In this document: piece by piece, positions 4,979 through 33,174 of the stretch | How the letters are laid out: each line of letters starts with the position of its first letter | Position numbering within the stretch: the first letter of the stretch is position 1 | Source of the DNA: Bacilli bacterium | Lineage (GTDB): Bacteria > Bacillota_I > Bacilli_A > RF39 > UBA660 | Length of the DNA: 64,000 bases | Assembly: GCA_017472015.1 (NCBI GenBank) | Contig: JAFURC010000049.1 | Location: forward strand, 22,220-86,219 | Direction: 5' to 3' | Notes under the pieces: generated by a model | Database searches by the model: none | Seen by the model: only the letters and a program-made list of their open reading frames with translations | Told to the model about the DNA's origin: nothing | Program-made: the position numbers and the translations under genes

Positions 4979-6718
4979 ATGAAAAAAGAAAAAAAATTTT
5001 TATTCGTGTTTTTAATAGGTCTATTTTTATCTATTCCAAATGTTAGTGCATTAGTAGGACCAATAGAAAATACGGAGTCAATAATATTTAAACATAATAA
5101 TCAAGTACATGTCATTAAGGAAAGGAATTTATCATGTATACAAGGTGAAGAAGTATATTTTGAAGAGTTTGACTTATATGGTAATTTCTACTATGAAGTA
5201 GATGGAGAAATGGTAAAAATTACTAAAGATAATAAATGTGCTCCTGTGACAGCTGAAGATAAAATTAATATTAATCAGTTTAATAGATATCAATATGAAT
5301 TTGAAACAACTACTGAAGGTAAAGTTGTTATTAATGCATATGATAAAAGATATGAAGAAGCTTTTTATGAAACTATTGACACAGAAGTTAATAGTGAAAA
5401 AACATATTATACATTTGATGAAGATAATGTAGAAATGATAGAATTTACAGGTACTACTTTTGATCATGATGCTACATACTATGAAGTTGGATATGTTGTA
5501 ATGATAAAAGAAATAAATCAAGATCCAAATCTAACTTATTATGATCGATATACAGCATATGTTCCAGATGGAAAATTAATATTTAAAACAGTTCAAGAAT
5601 TTAACAAAGATAATTTTAATGATTATTATATTGTAAATAACAATGTAACTAAACCAGAGAAAACTATTGAAGTAAATCAAGAAGTTTTTAAAGAACTATT
5701 AAATGATCCAGAACTTGATTATTATGATATCCTAAATATAGGAGAAAATTACTATATACAGATGTCATTTACAAATAATGATGAAAAAGTATATGATCTT
5801 GATGGAAATTTACTATTTACTAATGGCATGGTTTATCCATTAGGAGATGATTTATATGCAATTACAAGTTTTGAAAATTATAAAACAGCAATATATAATA
5901 AAGATACAAAATTAATAGATGTTGATAAATATTCGGCAATGGTAAATACATATTATTCTAATTATTATAATTTAGGACTAGCAATGAAAATAAGTGATAA
6001 TCAAGAAGAATACTATTTATTAGTTCATCAAATTTATCATATTATTTCCGGAGAAAATCAAAAATATGATAATAAAGATTTAAAGTTTACTTTCAGTGGT
6101 GAATCAGAATTATTTCATAGAATTTTAATTAATGGTGAAGAAATTTCTAGTAGTAATTATGAAGTAGAAGATGGAAGTACCATTATAACTTTAAAAAATG
6201 ATTATTTAAAAACTCTTGAAAATGGAACATACAAATTAAAAGTAGAATATAAAGATGGAGGATATGTTGAAACTACATTTGAAGTTGAGATAAAAACTTT
6301 CAAATTAACTTTTGATGCTAATGGTGGAGTATTTAAAGATCAATCGAAAACAATGAATTATGAAAATTGGGAATTTGGAATGTTACTAATTCAAGAAGAA
6401 CCAACAAAAGAAGGTTATAAATTTACGGGTTGGTATACTGAAAAAGAAGGTGGTTCGCCCTTAGCAGCTGAACCAGTTATGACTGATGATATGATAGTTT
6501 ATGCTAGATGGGAAGAAGAAAATAATACTTCAGAAGGCAATGTTAGTGAGGAAGATAAAACAGATACTTCAAAAGATAATGATACAGAAAATAATGTAGA
6601 TACGCCTCAAACATTTGATCAATTTGCAACAAGTATTCTGATGACAACTATTTCATTGATAGGTTTAGTAGGTACAATAATGTATTTAAAAAAACAAATA
6701 AAGAAGGAAATTAATTAA
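4979..6718 (+). CDS. Surface protein with signal peptide, Listeria-Bacteroides (InlB B-type) repeat and C-terminal membrane anchor
   Basis: GGAGG RBS; signal peptide ending NVSA-L; FKLTFDANGG...PTKEGYKFTGWYTEKEG...MIVYARWEE; C-terminal hydrophobic stretch followed by KKQIKKE. Confidence 0.7.
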   Translation: MKKEKKFLFVFLIGLFLSIPNVSALVGPIENTESIIFKHNNQVHVIKERNLSCIQGEEVYFEEFDLYGNFYYEVDGEMVKITKDNKCAPVTAEDKININQFNRYQYEFETTTEGKVVINAYDKRYEEAFYETIDTEVNSEKTYYTFDEDNVEMIEFTGTTFDHDATYYEVGYVVMIKEINQDPNLTYYDRYTAYVPDGKLIFKTVQEFNKDNFNDYYIVNNNVTKPEKTIEVNQEVFKELLNDPELDYYDILNIGENYYIQMSFTNNDEKVYDLDGNLLFTNGMVYPLGDDLYAITSFENYKTAIYNKDTKLIDVDKYSAMVNTYYSNYYNLGLAMKISDNQEEYYLLVHQIYHIISGENQKYDNKDLKFTFSGESELFHRILINGEEISSSNYEVEDGSTIITLKNDYLKTLENGTYKLKVEYKDGGYVETTFEVEIKTFKLTFDANGGVFKDQSKTMNYENWEFGMLLIQEEPTKEGYKFTGWYTEKEGGSPLAAEPVMTDDMIVYARWEEENNTSEGNVSEEDKTDTSKDNDTENNVDTPQTFDQFATSILMTTISLIGLVGTIMYLKKQIKKEIN

Positions 6719-6767: not shown

Positions 6768-6842
6768 GCAATAAATTTTATATAATATAATGACTTTTCT
6801 TTAGAAATTTGCTACAATAGTAATGTTTACAAGGAGGTAATT

Positions 6843-8150
6843 ATGTTTGAAGGACTAGGAGAAAGATTACAAAAGATAGTACATAAAGCAAAAGGGTATG
6901 GAAAAATAACTGAAGAAAACATTAGTGAAATGGTAAGAGAAGTTAGAATTGCCTTACTAGAAGCTGATGTTAATTATAAAGTAGTAAAAGAATTTACTAA
7001 TCGTGTTAAAGAAAAAGCACTTGGAGAAAAGGTTTTAGATAGTTTAAAACCAGGAGAAGTATTTGTTAAAATTGTTAGTGATGAATTAACGGAATTACTT
7101 GGTGGTGAGTATAAAGAATTAAATATTAAAGGAGATCCAGCTATATTAATGCTAGTTGGTCTTCAAGGAAGTGGTAAAACAACAACTATTGGGAAACTTG
7201 CTAATTTACTTCGTAAAAAATATCATAAAAAACCAATGATGGTAGCATGTGATGTGTATCGTCCAGCTGCCATTGATCAGTTAAAACAAATTGGAAAAGA
7301 ACTTGATATCTTTGTTTATGAAAATGGACTTAATAATCCAGTTGAAACAAGTAAGGACGCAATTAAATATGCTAAAGATAATGGGTATGATTACGTTTTA
7401 ATTGATACAGCAGGACGTTTACATATTGATGAAGAATTAATGAATGAACTTAAAAATATTAAAAGTGAGGTATCTCCAGAAGAAATATTATTAGTAATTG
7501 ATTCTATGATGGGACAAGATGCGATTAATGTTATAAGTGGATTTAATGAAGCCATTGATTTAACTGGAGTTATTCTAACTAAACTAGATGGTGATACAAG
7601 AGGTGGAGTTGCCCTATCCGCAAGACATTTAACCAATGTTCCAATTAAATTCATGGGAACAAGTGAAAAAATGGATGGACTTGAACCATTTGATCCGAAA
7701 AGAATGTCAGGACGTATTCTTGGAATGGGAGATATTGTTAGTTTAGTTGAAAAAGCAACAGAAGCAATTAGTCAAGAAGATGCTGAAAACTCAATTAAAA
7801 AAATGCAAAAAGGTAATTATAATTTAGATGACTTTTTAAAACAAATGAAACAAATACGTAGTATGGGACCACTTGAAAATTTATTAAAGTTATTCCCAGG
7901 GGCTAGTAAAATGGGATTTAATAAAATCCAAATTGATCCTAAACAAGTTGCTCGTATTGAGTCAATTATTTTATCAATGACTATGGAAGAAAGGAAAAAT
8001 CCTAATATCATTAAGGCGAGTAGAAAAACAAGAATTGCTAAAGGATCAGGAGTAAGTGTAACTGAAGTTAATCGTCTTTTAGAACAATTTGAAAATTATA
8101 AAAAAATGGTTAAAAATATAATGAATGGTAATATGAAATTACCTTTCTAA
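6843..8150 (+). CDS. ffh: Signal recognition particle protein Ffh
   Basis: GLQGSGKTTT, DTAGR, TKLDGD GTPase motifs; Met-rich M domain. Confidence 0.95.
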   Translation: MFEGLGERLQKIVHKAKGYGKITEENISEMVREVRIALLEADVNYKVVKEFTNRVKEKALGEKVLDSLKPGEVFVKIVSDELTELLGGEYKELNIKGDPAILMLVGLQGSGKTTTIGKLANLLRKKYHKKPMMVACDVYRPAAIDQLKQIGKELDIFVYENGLNNPVETSKDAIKYAKDNGYDYVLIDTAGRLHIDEELMNELKNIKSEVSPEEILLVIDSMMGQDAINVISGFNEAIDLTGVILTKLDGDTRGGVALSARHLTNVPIKFMGTSEKMDGLEPFDPKRMSGRILGMGDIVSLVEKATEAISQEDAENSIKKMQKGNYNLDDFLKQMKQIRSMGPLENLLKLFPGASKMGFNKIQIDPKQVARIESIILSMTMEERKNPNIIKASRKTRIAKGSGVSVTEVNRLLEQFENYKKMVKNIMNGNMKLPF

Positions 8151-19127: not shown

Positions 19128-19202
19128 GTCCTCATAGTATAACGGATAGTACAAATCCCTCCTAAGGATTAAATGTAGGTTCGATTCCTACTGGGGACGC
19201 CA
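19128..19202 (+). tRNA. tRNA-Arg (anticodon CCU)
   Basis: Hand-folded cloverleaf: acceptor GTCCTCA/TGGGGAC, D stem GTAT/GTAC, anticodon stem AATCC/GGATT with loop CTCCTAA, T arm GTAGG-TTCGATT-CCTAC, encoded CCA. Confidence 0.9.
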
Positions 19203-19278: not shown

Positions 19279-20466
19279 TTATTTTTTTAATTTATTTATA
19301 ACATCAATAGTGTGTTTTTTCTTATCAGGAAACATGTGGTAATAAGTTCTTTCAACTTCTGTTGGAGTGTCTCCAATTCTTTCTGCAACTTCATATACAT
19401 CACAACCTAAATAGATAAGCAAAGATACATGACTATGTCTAAATCCATGTGGAGTTATTTTTTTAACTTTAGCATTATTGATATATTCTTCTAGTTTTCT
19501 TCTAAAAGTTGTTTTAGCAAAAAATCTAACATTACCAAATATAAAGAAGTTATTGTTAAATCCATATATTTTTTCTTCAATTTCTTTATGTTTTTGTAAC
19601 AGCATAATTAACTGATCATCTAAATTTACTATTCTAAATGAGTTTTTAGTTTTAGGATCGGTTATAATATAATCTTTTCCCTCTATCACTTTTAATTTTT
19701 TTTTATTGGCTTCTTCAATCATAGGCTTAAAGTCTTTTTTTTCAAATTTTGTAGTTAAAGTTTTGTTGATGCTTATCGTTTTTCTTTCAAAGTTAATATC
19801 ATTCCAATTTAAAGCATTAAATTCTCCGAAACGTAATCCTGTATAGTAAAGAAAGTTAAACATCAAATAATAAACGTCATTATCTACTACTTCAATGAAT
19901 TTTTGAAATTCTTCATAAGTCCAAAAATTCTTTTCACTATCCCTTGTGTCGCTACTTTTTTCAACTTTTTGTTTAATAATTTTTGAAGTAACTTTTCTAT
20001 CAAAATCATAATTGTTTTCAGCATATTCTAAAATTTCTTTCATTATCGAAATGATTCTATTTTTTTCGTCTAATCCAATGTTAGTTAAACCCAAAATATA
20101 ATTGTTCCATTTTGTGATAATATTGATTTTTATACTATGTAATTTATAGTCTTTAAAATAACTTAATATATATTTATTAGCCGTTAATTTTCTTGAGTAG
20201 AATGTTGAAGATTTTATAAAACTTTTTTTATATATCAACCATCCATTATATACATCTGCAAAAGAAATACTAATGTCCGAAATATCTTTTTTCGATACAG
20301 TTGTTAAAAACTCTCTTTCAGCATTCTTAGCTTCACTAGAAGTTAAAAACATTTTAGATACTTTTTGTTTTCTATTACCATACATATCGGTATAGTAGCA
20401 TTTATAATAATAATGCCTACCATCTTTAGTCCATTTATTTTTATTTTTTTCATTGTAAACTGCCAT
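19279..20466 (-). CDS. int: Tyrosine integrase
   Basis: HGFRHSHVSLL and ERTYYHM catalytic motifs; GGAGG RBS 8 nt before ATG at 20466 (track start 20481 is TTG); adjacent to attL. Confidence 0.9.
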   Translation of the reverse strand: MAVYNEKNKNKWTKDGRHYYYKCYYTDMYGNRKQKVSKMFLTSSEAKNAEREFLTTVSKKDISDISISFADVYNGWLIYKKSFIKSSTFYSRKLTANKYILSYFKDYKLHSIKINIITKWNNYILGLTNIGLDEKNRIISIMKEILEYAENNYDFDRKVTSKIIKQKVEKSSDTRDSEKNFWTYEEFQKFIEVVDNDVYYLMFNFLYYTGLRFGEFNALNWNDINFERKTISINKTLTTKFEKKDFKPMIEEANKKKLKVIEGKDYIITDPKTKNSFRIVNLDDQLIMLLQKHKEIEEKIYGFNNNFFIFGNVRFFAKTTFRRKLEEYINNAKVKKITPHGFRHSHVSLLIYLGCDVYEVAERIGDTPTEVERTYYHMFPDKKKHTIDVINKLKK

Positions 20467-20484
20467 AAATTTTACCTCCAATTA

Positions 20485-20519: not shown

Positions 20520-20605
20520 ATAGAAAAAGAATTGTCTGACCGACTATTTAATTTCTATACCCCTATTGGGTTGATCTCGTATTACCAGTACGAGGTCTTT
20601 TTTTT
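20520..20605 (+). ncRNA. Candidate ~85-nt small RNA bounded by a promoter and a terminator
   Basis: No ATG or RBS; ends in a 9-bp hairpin GATCTCGTA/TACGAGGTC (20573-20597) followed by T8. Confidence 0.4.
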
Positions 20606-20847
20606 ACCTATTATATCAATTTTTTTTGATGTGTCAATTTTTAATTTGGTAAATTTTGTTTGTGTTTTATTAATTTTGTCCCTTTTAAGCAATAAAATGT
20701 GCATTTAACGCAAGTTTTTTGCTCTAACATAATTTTTAATTTAAAATAAAATAGGGGTGTAGTTTGAAAAATCTAAAAAAGTTCTATAAATATCTAAAAA
20801 AACATAATTATTATTACAATTTTATAAAGTTATTAGTAGGACAAATT

Positions 20848-20875
20848 AAAAAGCACCAATAAAAGGTGCTTTATC
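20848..20875 (-). terminator. Terminator after the PBECR-like gene
   Basis: AGCACC/GGTGCT stem flanked by an A-run and a T-run. Confidence 0.55.
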
Positions 20876-20890
20876 TATTAATGCCTGCTA

Positions 20891-21277
20891 TCATTCAATT
20901 CCTACTACATACTTATTATAATACTTGTTTTTTCTTTTATTTTCCAATTTTGTTTGTTTAACAGGGAAAAGTGTTTTCATTTTTAATTCTCTTCCAGGTT
21001 CAACCTTTACTCTTATAGTAATTCCTAATTCATCAAAAAATTTATAATACTCAAGTGTATCTTTTGCTTTAACATAGAAAACTTCATCAGGATTTGAAAT
21101 TATATAATCAAGATTTGTCATAACATAATAAAAAGATTCTTTAGAAGGAAATTCGTCCATATGCTTTTTACAATGTCTTTTATCATTATCATATAAAACA
21201 ATAGGTTTATTAGAATGTTCAGGTATATTATTATCTAGTGCTATTTTTTTACTAACTCGTCCTAATATTTGTTTCAT
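20891..21277 (-). CDS. PBECR-like (phage Barnase/EndoU/colicin-E5/RelE-type) nuclease-fold protein, 128 aa
   Basis: GAGAGG RBS before ATG 21277; IVLYDNDKRHCKKHMDEF...LDYIISNPDEVFYV...ITIRVKVEPG...KTLFPV pattern recalled from PBECR families; the track's N-terminal extension covers a terminator hairpin. Confidence 0.45.
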   Translation of the reverse strand: MKQILGRVSKKIALDNNIPEHSNKPIVLYDNDKRHCKKHMDEFPSKESFYYVMTNLDYIISNPDEVFYVKAKDTLEYYKFFDELGITIRVKVEPGRELKMKTLFPVKQTKLENKRKNKYYNKYVVGIE

Positions 21278-21290
21278 ATGTTTACCTCTC

Positions 21291-21317
21291 AAAAAGAAAG
21301 CCTGCAATAATGCAGGC
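21291..21317 (-). terminator. Terminator/attenuator hairpin immediately upstream of the PBECR RBS
   Basis: Minus strand reads GCCTGC-attatt-GCAGGC followed by TTTCTTTTT. Confidence 0.5.
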
Positions 21318-21491
21318 ATTGAATAATTAAGCCAGGCACAACTCTGGCATCCCATCGAATTTAAAAAATTCTACACTTAAGATATTTCTATCCGTAATAG
21401 TTAGTGACTTTCTACCTTTAGTTATTCAATTTAAGAATATCCATAGATATTCTATTAATATTATGTAATCGCCTTACTATAATATACATAA

Positions 21492-21520
21492 ATTATATCA
21501 CAATAAAATATAAATTGCAA
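21492..21520 (-). promoter_or_regulatory. Promoter for the PBECR leader
   Basis: Minus strand reads TTGCAA (21515-21520), 17-nt spacer, extended -10 TGaTATAAT. Confidence 0.5.
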
Positions 21521-21524
21521 TAAA
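21513..21524. promoter_or_regulatory. Operator-like 12-mer AATTGCAATAAA (O5) overlapping the -35
   Basis: Identical 12-mer at 23039-23050; 11/12 match at 23382-23393. Confidence 0.4.
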
Positions 21525-21574
21525 ACCTATGTCTAAGTATTATAGACTATTTTTTAGAAATGTCAAGCAATTTT

Positions 21575-21597
21575 TAAAAGCACTAGTTTTTAGTGCT
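21575..21597 (-). terminator. Weak terminator overlapping the stop codon of the Zn-ribbon gene
   Basis: AGCACTA/TAGTGCT stem, T4 on the minus strand. Confidence 0.35.
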
Positions 21598-22659
21598 TTC
21601 TTTGGTTAATTTTGTTTTTATATATTCAATGGTTTTTTCAGAATAATTACCATTTTTTTTATATTCTATATTGTCTTTGATATCTTTAACCAGAATATTA
21701 AACCTTTTTATATCTATATCAAATAATTCTAATAATTCTTTTCTAATGTATGGGTATTTAAATTTAAAATTATAGTAATCTTCTAAAGGCTTAATTTTGT
21801 TTTCATATCTATATTTGTATGGTATTTTTTGCTTTATAGAAAAATCTTTTTGATGTTTTATAAATTTATCTAAAACAGTTCTTGCGTTTTCAAAGTTCTT
21901 GTGTGTGATATAAAAACGACATAAATCTTCATATGCACCACCATTGTATTTAGATGCTTCTTTCATATAAAATTCATACAATTTATAATTCTTTTCTTTT
22001 GCGTATCCGTTTGCAATGTCTCTATATCTAATATAATGTTGGGCATTAATATAGTTTTGTTTATCAATGTCATCTATAAAACTATCATCTTCTGCTATAA
22101 TACCGTCATCTAAATATAATTTTGAATAATAAATTTTCTGTTTAGAAAAAGAAGAAGAATTTCCTTCGAATATTGTAGCCATAATACGTTTTTGTTGTGA
22201 CGTAATAGGTTTGCCACATAAACCAAATAAAATTAAATAGTTCATAAATCTACTAGTACAACCTTCAAAATATCCATATAACATATTTTCTGCTAAATCT
22301 GGGTTTGGGTGGAAATTATTTTGCATAAATATTTTCTTAGGTGTACTTTTGAAATATGTTTGATATTCGTCAAGAATTCCATTTTTTCTAAACATTTCTA
22401 TATATTCTTGTAAATTACCTGCATATTCTTTATATTGTAGTTGCAACATTTTAATTAAAGAAATTATAGACATATAGTCATCTAAGGTTGTATCATTTGT
22501 ATTTGCTATTTCAATATATTTTTCAATTAAATCACATAGTATTTCTTTTTCTGAGAAATTGTTATTAATTAAATTATTTTTTTTAATTTTAAAACCACAA
22601 TTAGCACAATAATTGTAGTTTTCTTTTATTTTATTTCCGCATTCTTCACAATAGTTCAT
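21583..22659 (-). CDS. Zn-ribbon protein with helical/TPR-like body (358 aa), function unknown
   Basis: N-terminal CEECGNKIKENYNYCANCG; lies in the lysogeny module downstream of cI. Confidence 0.6.
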   Translation of the reverse strand: MNYCEECGNKIKENYNYCANCGFKIKKNNLINNNFSEKEILCDLIEKYIEIANTNDTTLDDYMSIISLIKMLQLQYKEYAGNLQEYIEMFRKNGILDEYQTYFKSTPKKIFMQNNFHPNPDLAENMLYGYFEGCTSRFMNYLILFGLCGKPITSQQKRIMATIFEGNSSSFSKQKIYYSKLYLDDGIIAEDDSFIDDIDKQNYINAQHYIRYRDIANGYAKEKNYKLYEFYMKEASKYNGGAYEDLCRFYITHKNFENARTVLDKFIKHQKDFSIKQKIPYKYRYENKIKPLEDYYNFKFKYPYIRKELLELFDIDIKRFNILVKDIKDNIEYKKNGNYSEKTIEYIKTKLTKESTKN

Positions 22660-22668
22660 ATTAACTAC

Positions 22669-23025
22669 CTACTTATCATTTTTCAAAAATTCTTTATTAG
22701 CATTAACGAACTTCATTAATCTATCTAATTCTTCATCCGTTAAGTCTTCATCGTTTTCCATAAAACCAGATTTTTGAAGTATTTTTCTTAATATAGCTAA
22801 TTCCTCTGTTTCAGACATAGTTCTTTCATTTCCTATTAAAAAATCCACTGACACATCCAACAGTTTCGCCATTTCATAAACTACTTCGATTTTAGGTACA
22901 ATTAAATTATTTATATATCTTGAAAGTGTGGCTTCAGTTATTTCTAATTTATCAGCAAATTCTTTTTGACTGATATTTTTATTTTCAAGTAACGATTTTA
23001 GTCTAGCACCGAAATCCTTTCTCAT
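22669..23025 (-). CDS. CI-like repressor (XRE-family HTH)
   Basis: GGAGTG RBS before ATG 23025; ISQKEFADKLEITEATLSRYINN; divergent from the cro-like gene. Confidence 0.8.
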   Translation of the reverse strand: MRKDFGARLKSLLENKNISQKEFADKLEITEATLSRYINNLIVPKIEVVYEMAKLLDVSVDFLIGNERTMSETEELAILRKILQKSGFMENDEDLTDEELDRLMKFVNANKEFLKNDK

Positions 23026-23038
23026 ATTTATCACTCCT

Positions 23039-23060
23039 AATTGCAATAAATATAACATTA
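23039..23060. promoter_or_regulatory. Operator-like site O1 (AATTGCAATAAATATAACATTA)
   Basis: Near-identical to O3. Confidence 0.45.
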
Positions 23061-23105
23061 TTAATTAAAAAAATAACAAAAATTACAAAAAATATAATTT
23101 TACTA

Positions 23106-23134: not shown

Positions 23135-23179
23135 TGAATTATCTTGCAAAAGATGAAAGAATACAAGGAGGTGAAAAAA

Positions 23180-23380
23180 ATGAAAAGTTTAGAATTAGTT
23201 GCTGAAAGAAATAGAAAAGGATTAAGGCAAAATGACATCTCTAAACTTCTTAATCTTTCTATAATTCAATATGGTAAAAAAGAGAGAGGTCAAGTTGATT
23301 TTACAATAAGTGAAGTAAAAAAAATCAAGAATATACTAAATTTAGATGCTAATCGAATTATAGAAATTTTTTTAACTTAA
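23180..23380 (+). CDS. Cro-like XRE HTH regulator
   Basis: AAGGAGG RBS before ATG 23180; GLRQNDISKLLNLSIIQYGKKERG. Confidence 0.75.
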   Translation: MKSLELVAERNRKGLRQNDISKLLNLSIIQYGKKERGQVDFTISEVKKIKNILNLDANRIIEIFLT

Positions 23381-23381
23381 T

Positions 23382-23404
23382 AATTGCAATAATTATAATG
23401 TTAT
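23382..23404. promoter_or_regulatory. Operator-like site O3 (AATTGCAATAATTATAATGTTAT), downstream of cro
   Basis: Matches O1 at about 19 of 22 positions. Confidence 0.45.
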
Positions 23405-33099: not shown

Positions 33100-33174
33100 T
33101 GTCTCGTAGCCAAAAGGTAAGGCATAAGGCTTTGAACCTTAGATGTATTAGTTCGAATCTAATCGAGACAACCA
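33100..33174 (+). tRNA. Phage-encoded tRNA-Gln (anticodon UUG)
   Basis: Hand-folded cloverleaf: acceptor TGTCTCG/CGAGACA (U1-A72), D arm GCC-AAAAGGTAA-GGC, anticodon stem TAAGG/CCTTA with loop CTTTGAA, T arm ATTAG-TTCGAAT-CTAAT, encoded CCA. Confidence 0.85.

Follow-up and report, generated by a model that had tools for sequence, protein, structure and literature searches.

A divergent four-hairpin skipping-rope RNA stands before a PBECR3-family RNase gene in a Bacilli prophage

The RNA and nuclease module

The window analysed here is a stretch of 64,000 nucleotides (nt) from a Bacilli bacterium (assembly GCA_017472015.1, contig JAFURC010000049.1, positions 22,220 to 86,219 of the forward strand), and all coordinates below count from its first letter. 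Between the integrase and the cI-like repressor gene of a prophage it carries a minus-strand module with two conserved elements, a gene for a 128-amino-acid (aa) RNase of the PBECR3 family and, directly upstream, a structured RNA of 107 nt. Judged from sequence and predicted pairing, this leader RNA is a four-hairpin, divergent variant of the skipping-rope RNA (Rfam RF02924). A terminator lies between the RNA and the gene. The elements of the module are as follows.

20891..21277, minus strand: PBECR3-family RNase gene, 128 aa plus stop codon (assigned by Pfam and by alignment of homologues)
21285..21290, minus strand: ribosome-binding site (RBS) GAGAGG, 7 nt before the ATG
21291..21317, minus strand: intrinsic terminator with a 7-bp stem GCCUGCA/UGCAGGC and loop UUAU, then UUUCUUUUU; it begins 3 nt after helix P1 of the RNA
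21321..21427, minus strand: core of the skipping-rope-like RNA, 107 nt (covariance model 115.9 bits, E 8.6e-23; covariation)
21434..21453, minus strand: 5' hairpin P0, AGAAUAUC-UAUG-GAUAUUCU (DNA arms AGAATATC/GATATTCT), read from the sequence

The nuclease

The longest open reading frame (ORF) at the gene is 20891..21355 (154 aa). The start was placed at 21277 because every homologue begins with MK(Q/R)ILG, which is the N-terminus of all 16 aligned sequences. The same start had been proposed in an earlier reading of the locus from its letters (the sequence-only reading), which also recognised a PBECR domain by its residue pattern. Profile search bears out both family matches above the Pfam cut-offs (PBECR3 40.9 bits, cut-off 30, E 2.2e-10; PBECR2 36.5 bits, cut-off 27.1), and precomputed PF18812 and PF18810 matches are on record for the homologues. 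PBECR domains form a predicted metal-independent endoribonuclease clade of the BECR fold, in which the RNase activity itself is a prediction (PMC5512222).

Residues H35, K38, H39, R89, E97, K101 and T102 are invariant in 17 sequences. H35 and H39 are located at or just past a predicted helix (residues 30–37) and T102 in the last strand, and these three predicted catalytic residues fit the His...Thr/Ser active-site pattern of PBECR domains (PMC5512222). The AlphaFold2 model of the 128-aa protein has a pLDDT of 90. Its best match in BFVD is a phage minor capsid protein (E 1.7e-4, TM 0.62), with polyvalent-protein domains next, and PBECR domains fused to MuF occur in such minor capsid and polyvalent proteins (Iyer et al., PMC5512222).

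Only 17 homologues of the protein were found in all among 5.8 billion clusters, and a PDB sequence search with the family profile returned nothing significant. In 50,697 phage records neither blastn of the 3.1-kb region nor tblastn of the protein gave a match, and a single-protein scan of IMG/VR found no relative.

Architecture and covariation of the RNA

In every contig fetched for the homologues, 320–740 nt without genes lie upstream of the nuclease gene. Alignment of these upstream regions revealed a shared block of about 105–135 nt, in which helices show compensatory changes and the single-stranded segments AGAAA, CGG, CUUAAGUGUAG and GAUGnGAU are near-invariant. A covariance model was built from 9 copies, and more copies were collected from IMG/VR and from metagenome contigs fetched by RNA sequence patterns alone. 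The first pattern, TTAAGTGTAG N{6,36} GATGNGAT, was too loose, with real RNAs at 1/120 genome loci and 8/120 viral loci among the matches listed. The alignment of variant RNAs contains 28 sequences (26 distinct rows). In the window the core, all on the minus strand, is divided as follows.

21427-21418 with 21330-21321, minus strand: closing helix P1
21416-21412 with 21400-21396, minus strand: P2
21393-21389 with 21384-21380, minus strand: P3, closing a GAAA loop
21381-21371, minus strand: near-invariant linker CUUAAGUGUAG
21371-21366 with 21362-21357, minus strand: P4
21356-21349, minus strand: conserved linker GAUGGGAU
21348-21344 with 21335-21331, minus strand: P5 (the GCCAG/CTGGC hairpin, 21348..21331)
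21406-21404 with 21339-21337, minus strand: pseudoknot of the P2 loop (CAC) with the P5 loop (GUG)

Standard pairs fill 95.3% of the paired cells of the alignment, against 77% in shuffles and at most 43% when the partners are slid. Changes on both sides were observed in 23 of the 29 pairs, and none of 500 shuffles attained any of the observed measures. The loop-loop pseudoknot is paired in 98.7% of cases in the variant set and covaries there (AU/GC/CG/UA and CG/UA). Conserved G-U pairs fix the strand, so the RNA is placed on the strand of the gene.

At the position of P0, the other leaders carry a hairpin of differing sequence (judged by eye). The two hairpins of the sequence-only reading, with arms AGAATATC/GATATTCT (21453..21434) and GCCAG/CTGGC (21348..21331), are both present. 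Its structured leader is real, but the hairpins are parts of a skipping-rope-class RNA rather than features peculiar to this locus. No tandem repeats had been seen in the leader, and TRF agrees, its sole match being a weak array inside the coding region.

Other identities were tried for the leader. Rfam and ARAGORN gave nothing at the RNA site, and a ribozyme, a T-box and a tRNA were rejected on these blank results and on the lack of self-cleavage seen by Weinberg et al. (PMC5737381). A 23-codon ATG frame in the leader was also rejected as a leader peptide; it has no RBS and is not kept in L015, a relative that is 98% identical.

Relation to the skipping-rope class

The RF02924 model has 80 positions and consists of P1 and three hairpins. 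Its cut-off of 36.7 bits was passed by 5 of the 26 distinct RNAs that match our model, at 39.3–46.5 bits, and the window copy gave no RF02924 match at E<=10, either on 161 nt or on 3.1 kb. Rfam misses the window copy because the extra hairpin P4 together with the CUUAAGUGUAG linker amounts to a 39-nt insertion relative to its model.

The remaining architecture is shared. Both RNAs form a multi-stem junction closed by P1, in which (G/A)AGG precedes P2 and GAGAUG precedes the last hairpin; in the window this is AAGG-P2 ... GAUGGGAUG-P5, and the RF02924 consensus reads GAGG-P2 ... GAGAUG-P(last). In both, the first and last hairpins pair through their loops, the RNA has a Rho-independent terminator behind it, and it is tied to one nearby protein family. 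The differences are the added P4 and CUUAAGUGUAG linker, the pseudoknot triplet (CAC/GUG in the window versus GGU/ACC in canonical skipping-rope; GGU/ACC and GGC/GCC were found by eye in canonical copies) and the gene order, with the window RNA upstream of its gene and the canonical RNA downstream.

According to Weinberg et al. 2017 (PMC5737381), skipping-rope has features of 'sophisticated biochemical function', a Rho-independent terminator and an association with a nearby protein, whereas self-cleavage was not seen and a riboswitch role was considered improbable. For the related DUF3800-associated motifs the same authors state that "no specific hypothesis" for a function was obvious. The literature searched contained no later functional work on skipping-rope and no functional hypothesis for it.

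Pairing of RNA and gene across loci

Starting from the RNA, the order variant RNA, terminator and same-strand PBECR homologue was observed in 23 of the 28 variant copies. The other five (L163, L256, L203, L238 and L161) have no PBECR gene, orphan loci being judged within the fetched flanks. For L163, L203 and L161, 0/26 neighbouring ORFs is a PBECR protein. The orphan variant copies stand in unrelated contexts without terminators. Two of them stand on phage contigs with tRNA gene clusters: six tRNA genes occur within 2.5 kb at L203 (8173-10749), and nine at L161 (1868-1971, 13673-14765). One neighbour ORF in the L203/L163/L161 set matches HAD_SAK_2, a HAD domain of 'Swiss Army Knife' RNA-repair proteins.

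Canonical RNAs were collected from IMG/VR with a pattern taken from the Rfam consensus, which gave 81 loci and 41 distinct RNAs; those tested were confirmed as RF02924 (59.9–77.8 bits). In 11 of the 41, a same-strand ORF of about 130 aa ends 49–77 nt upstream of the pattern match, whose point is the GAGG about 12 nt inside P1. Pfam identifies these ORFs as PBECR3, with E down to 1.3e-27. No PBECR3 gene was found within 2.5 kb of the other 30.

Starting from the protein, the association was complete. In the window clade the RNA lies upstream in 9/9 distinct loci found via the protein. The canonical clade comprises 68 loci with 43 distinct PBECR3 genes, and the RNA was located 45–90 nt downstream of 37 by pattern and of two more by eye, making 39/39 assessable genes; the four left out stand on contigs that end within 110 nt of the gene. 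Thus, among the 9 window-clade loci and the 39 assessable canonical genes, no gene without RNA was seen in either clade. The two PBECR3 clades are about 20% identical, and each has its own RNA architecture and gene order. In their joint alignment both His columns are invariant, and the Thr column holds Thr throughout, except for a Ser in one canonical sequence.

Among protein genes, only that of the RNase is a conserved neighbour of the variant RNA (19/19 loci). The next ORF family is found in 5/19 and is absent from the window. We therefore conclude that no protein immunity gene is present, in agreement with the sequence-only reading. That reading had also called the nuclease gene stand-alone, and this did not hold: the RNA is its constant partner and likely the missing immunity factor. 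The ORF found in 5/19 variant loci (L001, L002, L013, L260 and L261) encodes 152–181 aa on the opposite strand and converges on the nuclease gene about 30–65 nt downstream of it; no Pfam match is on record where it was looked up.

In the canonical form the PBECR3 stop codon and the RNA are separated by a short spacer that contains a TTGACA-17-TATAAT promoter. Of 21 representative loci, 19 match this promoter at 10/12 positions or more, ten of them at 12/12. The order is gene, promoter, RNA and terminator, with terminators visible past the RNA in many of these loci. By their layout, both gene orders would make the RNA a strongly expressed unit of its own, in excess over the protein.

Several loci hold further elements. 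At L382 (1896-2141) two tandem skipping-rope RNAs follow one PBECR3 gene. At L404 (731-2105) the PBECR3 gene is preceded by a FuFi-1 RNA, and a 6A RNA comes after the skipping-rope RNA. At L258 (3653-5283) a DUF3800-I RNA beside RNase P RNA is separated by about 500 nt from the variant skipping-rope RNA. Some canonical RNAs neighbour IscB-like (RRXRR + HNH) and TnpB-like (OrfB_IS605 / Cas12f-like TNB) proteins (L296 3357-4901, minus strand, and the A6 members), and others have integrases, ClpP or endolysins as neighbours. L300 carries two drum RNAs (RF02958; 5703-5810 and 5880-5981) upstream of a PemK/MazF-like ORF (6313-6708; 24.6 bits, cut-off 23.1), with a canonical skipping-rope RNA next at 6835-6915. 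For drum, this order of a repeated RNA and then a PemK-like ORF is reminiscent of type III toxin-antitoxin loci. The ORF was considered as an alternative toxin partner of skipping-rope and rejected, since drum, with its two RNAs directly upstream, is the likelier partner.

Terminator and promoters

The pre-RBS terminator of the sequence-only reading is present at 21317..21291. On the DNA it reads GCCTGCA-TTAT-TGCAGGC followed by TTTCTTTTT, and it ends directly before the RBS; the hairpin has a free energy (dG) of -12.0 kcal/mol. An equivalent was found in 20/20 distinct variant loci tested, where a U-run with a strong hairpin (dG -9.7 to -19.2 kcal/mol) begins 0–6 nt past P1. Between the terminator and the ATG there is space for an RBS and nothing else, so the RNase would be made by read-through only.

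Gating of the nuclease by antitermination had also been proposed, and the results argue against it. P1 and the terminator form together in minimum-energy structures. Complementarity between the 5' arm of the terminator and the RNA was about that of shuffled arms, with differences centred on zero and only 2/20 loci reaching about 2 standard deviations. Taken together, the co-folding and the lack of excess arm complementarity mean that no antiterminator or riboswitch-type expression platform was found. Furthermore, the same RNA class occurs downstream of PBECR3 with its own promoter, or alone.

The following sites lie upstream of the RNA.

21492..21520, minus strand: second promoter-like site TTGCAA-17-TGaTATAAT (10/12 match plus TG)
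21513..21524, plus strand: 12-mer AATTGCAATAAA, overlapping the -35 of the second promoter; a second exact copy is at 23039-23050, cI/cro intergenic
21539..21566, minus strand: upstream sigma-70-type promoter TTGACA-16-TATAAT (12/12 match)

The sequence-only reading named the site at 21520..21492, which is present, and missed the perfect one at 21566..21539. The latter is located just past the terminator of the preceding gene and 46 nt upstream of the TTGCAA promoter. The -10 elements end 111 nt (upstream promoter) and 64 nt (second promoter) before P1. Both are plausible, because in related loci the -10 of the best promoter sits 65–115 nt before the RNA. In L015 the -10 of the second promoter reads AATAAG. 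Transcription of the RNA and nuclease unit may therefore start from two promoters in tandem.

The 12-mer AATTGCAATAAA, noticed earlier under the -35 and at the cI/cro switch, has two exact copies in the window (21513 and 23039) against 0.16 expected, a count reached by 1/100 shuffles. The switch itself holds three exact copies of a 17-nt unit, AATTRCAAWAAWTATAA, at 23039-23055, 23081-23097 and 23382-23398 (plus strand), and two near-copies at 23072 and 23112; these are candidate operators. Control of the second promoter by CI through the 12-mer, as a candidate operator, is possible. Three observations weaken it: when up to one mismatch is allowed, the 6 matches do not significantly exceed the 4.2 expected; the copy at 21513 matches the first 12 nt only of the 17-nt unit; and L015 has one substitution within the 12-mer.

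Prophage setting

The region forms the lysogeny module of a prophage that is integrated at a tRNA gene, with the nuclease gene between the integrase and cI genes. The surrounding features are as follows.

19279-20481, minus strand: tyrosine integrase
20850..20872, minus strand: terminator-like hairpin closing the module, upstream of the integrase promoter
21583-22659, minus strand: 358-aa protein with an N-terminal zinc ribbon, between cI and the RNA/nuclease module
22669-23058, minus strand: cI-like helix-turn-helix repressor gene
23144-23380, plus strand: cro-like gene, divergent

The tRNA gene at 19128-19199 (plus strand) adjoins the integrase and is likely the attachment site. Another tRNA gene, at 33100-33171 (plus strand), lies within or past the prophage. 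The zinc-ribbon protein has only PHROG matches of unknown function (for example phrog_2546), and its gene is not kept beside the module at other loci. In relatives the nuclease gene is mostly at a prophage end, 3' of lysis genes or beside a recombinase (contigs fetched). A perfect TTGACA-16-TGnTATAAT promoter (20637..20610, minus strand) stands upstream of the integrase, and an 11-bp terminator-like hairpin (20573-20597, plus strand) partly overlaps it; across 20573-20637 Rfam gives a ctRNA-like match that is weak and below threshold. In the 5.5-kb region 8 terminator-like sites were counted where 0.7 would be expected.

Interpretation

We tentatively favour, as plausible though short of probable, that the RNA is the abundant partner and antitoxin of the PBECR3 RNase, with the toxin made by terminator read-through only. 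One or two strong constitutive-type promoters would produce a leader of P0 and the 107-nt RNA. Most transcripts would stop at the terminator and supply an abundant small RNA, and a minority would read through to give the RNase, leaving the RNA in excess over the protein. The RNA would bind the RNase directly and neutralise it, as in type III systems and AbiF/RCd22. If the RNA supply fell or the RNA was destroyed, for example upon transcription shut-off by an infecting phage, the RNase would be freed and would cleave cellular or phage RNA, so that the prophage would provide abortive infection or addiction. In lysogens the pair would stay expressed from the prophage, and the gene-less RNA copies of other phages would be either antitoxins tolerated without a toxin or decoys for counter-defence.

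This antitoxin role is favoured because no gene was seen to lack the RNA while many RNAs were seen to lack the gene, which is the asymmetry of toxin-antitoxin pairs, and because the wiring enforces an excess of RNA over protein. It also draws on the abiF RNA motif of the same 2017 survey, which is the RNA antitoxin RCd22; on the nuclease being a PBECR3/PBECR2 RNase with intact predicted catalytic residues; on the conserved, structured and covarying RNA; on the absence of a protein immunity gene; and on the position of the module (int-cI here, lysis genes or recombinases in relatives), which is that of accessory genes expressed in lysogens.

A number of points weigh against it. Most canonical RNAs on phage contigs have no PBECR3 gene nearby, so the RNA may work without the protein, and an excess of RNA would also fit a cofactor or scaffold. 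The hallmarks of classic type III systems are missing, as TRF found no tandem RNA repeats and Pfam no ToxN fold. The model matches solved RNase toxins only weakly, the best PDB match being the RelE-like RNase toxin BrnT (E 0.07, probability 0.91), and none reaches E<=1e-3. PADLOC and PHROGs gave no match for the nuclease. Iyer et al. propose offensive, phage-serving roles for PBECR domains (PMC5512222). Finally, toxicity, binding between RNA and protein, and a defence role are all deduced from sequence.

The main rival, which we consider somewhat unlikely, makes the RNA a positive partner (a cofactor, scaffold, specificity subunit or processed substrate) of a ribonucleoprotein that serves the phage, for example in the processing of RNA or the breakdown of host or competitor RNA. 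The obligate association fits this equally well, the near-invariant single-stranded junctions CUUAAGUGUAG and GAUGnGAU resemble a protein-binding or catalytic core, and both the 'sophisticated biochemical function' seen by Weinberg et al. (PMC5737381) and the offensive roles proposed by Iyer et al. (PMC5512222) would suit it. However, gene-less RNAs are common and RNA-less genes were not seen, an asymmetry more typical of an antidote. The strong terminator before the gene keeps the protein scarce relative to the RNA, and in the window and most relatives the module occupies lysogeny or accessory positions rather than early lytic genes.

A riboswitch or regulated attenuator, in which a ligand or factor would decide whether the terminator forms and thereby gate the nuclease, is improbable in our judgement. 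Its attraction lies in the conserved multi-stem junction with invariant junction nucleotides, placed in a 5' untranslated region with a terminator next to it in 20/20 variant loci. In contrast, P1 and the terminator co-fold, the terminator arm has no excess complementarity to the RNA (18/20 loci are about as shuffled), canonical relatives come after the PBECR3 gene and have a promoter and a terminator to themselves, and orphan copies occur in unrelated contexts without terminators. Weinberg et al. likewise hold a riboswitch improbable for skipping-rope (PMC5737381).

The many orphan copies, and the other orphan motifs in the same loci (drum, FuFi-1, DUF3800-I and 6A), would suit an independent trans-acting small RNA or mobile RNA element that shares accessory hot-spots with PBECR3 with no functional link. 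We think this quite improbable, given that 39/39 and 9/9 PBECR3 genes from two clades of about 20% identity have an adjacent same-strand RNA with matching RNA architectures, and that the gene of the variant form has no promoter of its own. A processive antitermination element like put or EAR, which would let RNA polymerase read through the adjacent terminator, recalls a phage-borne structured RNA directly before a terminator but is hardly credible, as canonical copies are followed by a terminator with no downstream partner gene and no similarity to any Rfam antitermination family was found.

The antitoxin role may be extended to the whole class, an extension that we regard as unlikely as a whole. 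Skipping-rope RNAs would then be antitoxins of a new RNA-antitoxin class of toxin-antitoxin or abortive-infection systems with a BECR-fold PBECR3 RNase as toxin, and the RNA would be a tRNA-like, substrate-mimicking decoy. Its outline, with an acceptor-like closing stem, three or four arms and tertiary pairing of the first and last loops, recalls the tRNA cloverleaf with or without a long variable arm, and an RNA of this shape could therefore act as a decoy for a tRNA- or RNA-cleaving nuclease. The gene-less copies in large tRNA-carrying phages would be counter-defence decoys analogous to pseudo-ToxI, and a tRNA-rich orphan context would suggest counter-measures against tRNA-cleaving nucleases. 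Other toxins would be partnered by further motifs of 2017 that end in a 3' terminator and occur at these loci (drum, FuFi-1, DUF3800-I), as with the drum pair before the PemK-like ORF of L300.

Significance

Skipping-rope has been an unexplained RNA class since 2017, and its constant protein partner, the PBECR3 RNase, can now be named. A second, four-hairpin architecture that Rfam misses was shown, and an asymmetry was revealed, with the gene never without the RNA and the RNA often without the gene. An association with some nearby protein has been known since 2017 (PMC5737381). The literature searched names neither the PBECR3 partner, nor the two mirrored gene orders, nor the antitoxin role. 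The proposed mechanism is now open to simple toxicity-rescue and binding experiments. If it is true, RNA-antitoxin systems reach the large BECR toxin superfamily, prophage annotation gains a new defence or addiction module, and the wide spread of orphan structured phage RNAs might be counter-defence.

Comparison with known systems

The BECR toxins colicin D/E5 and those of contact-dependent inhibition (CDI) systems are small metal-independent RNases that need a dedicated inhibitor. In those systems immunity is a protein, whereas the sole constant partner in the window module is an RNA and no protein neighbour is conserved. The PBECR domains of polyvalent and MuF proteins belong to the same Pfam families and share the His...Thr/Ser pattern (PMC5512222). 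Unlike these, the window domain is a solo 128-aa protein, paired with an RNA and encoded in a lysogeny region; it is not fused to MuF or portal proteins and is not a virion-packaged domain.

Type III toxin-antitoxin systems (ToxIN, CptIN and TenpIN) are abortive-infection systems that are often found on mobile elements (PMC5772629, PMC12283969 and established knowledge). In these, a constitutive promoter, an RNA, an intrinsic terminator and an endoribonuclease gene form one unit and the toxin is made by read-through, and the window module has the same parts. The likeness to type III loci drawn by the sequence-only reading holds for this layout of promoter, RNA, terminator and nuclease, conserved in 20/20 loci, but does not extend to tandem repeats or a ToxN fold. 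The window RNA is a single complex fold of about 107 nt, and the predicted toxin, for which Pfam gives PBECR3 and PBECR2 only, is assigned the BECR/PBECR3 fold rather than the ToxN/AbiQ (PemK/MazF-like) fold. The locus may work like the classic type III families but is not a member of them.

The AbiF/RCd22 system of C. difficile offers a further parallel (bioRxiv 10.1101/2025.04.15.648962). RCd22, the abiF RNA motif, is described there as an antitoxin that, in cis and in trans, binds the AbiF toxin of the prophage; it neutralises the toxin by this direct contact and lowers its expression. That was shown by experiment, whereas the antitoxin role of the RNA in the window is predicted from sequence. 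The AbiF toxin belongs to Abi_2/AbiD/F and is related to Cas13, in contrast to the BECR protein here, and the two RNA folds differ. Both systems, however, are prophage-borne, and in both a structured RNA, an orphan motif of the 2017 survey, stands upstream of the gene for an RNA-targeting protein, a property that for the PBECR3 RNase is predicted.

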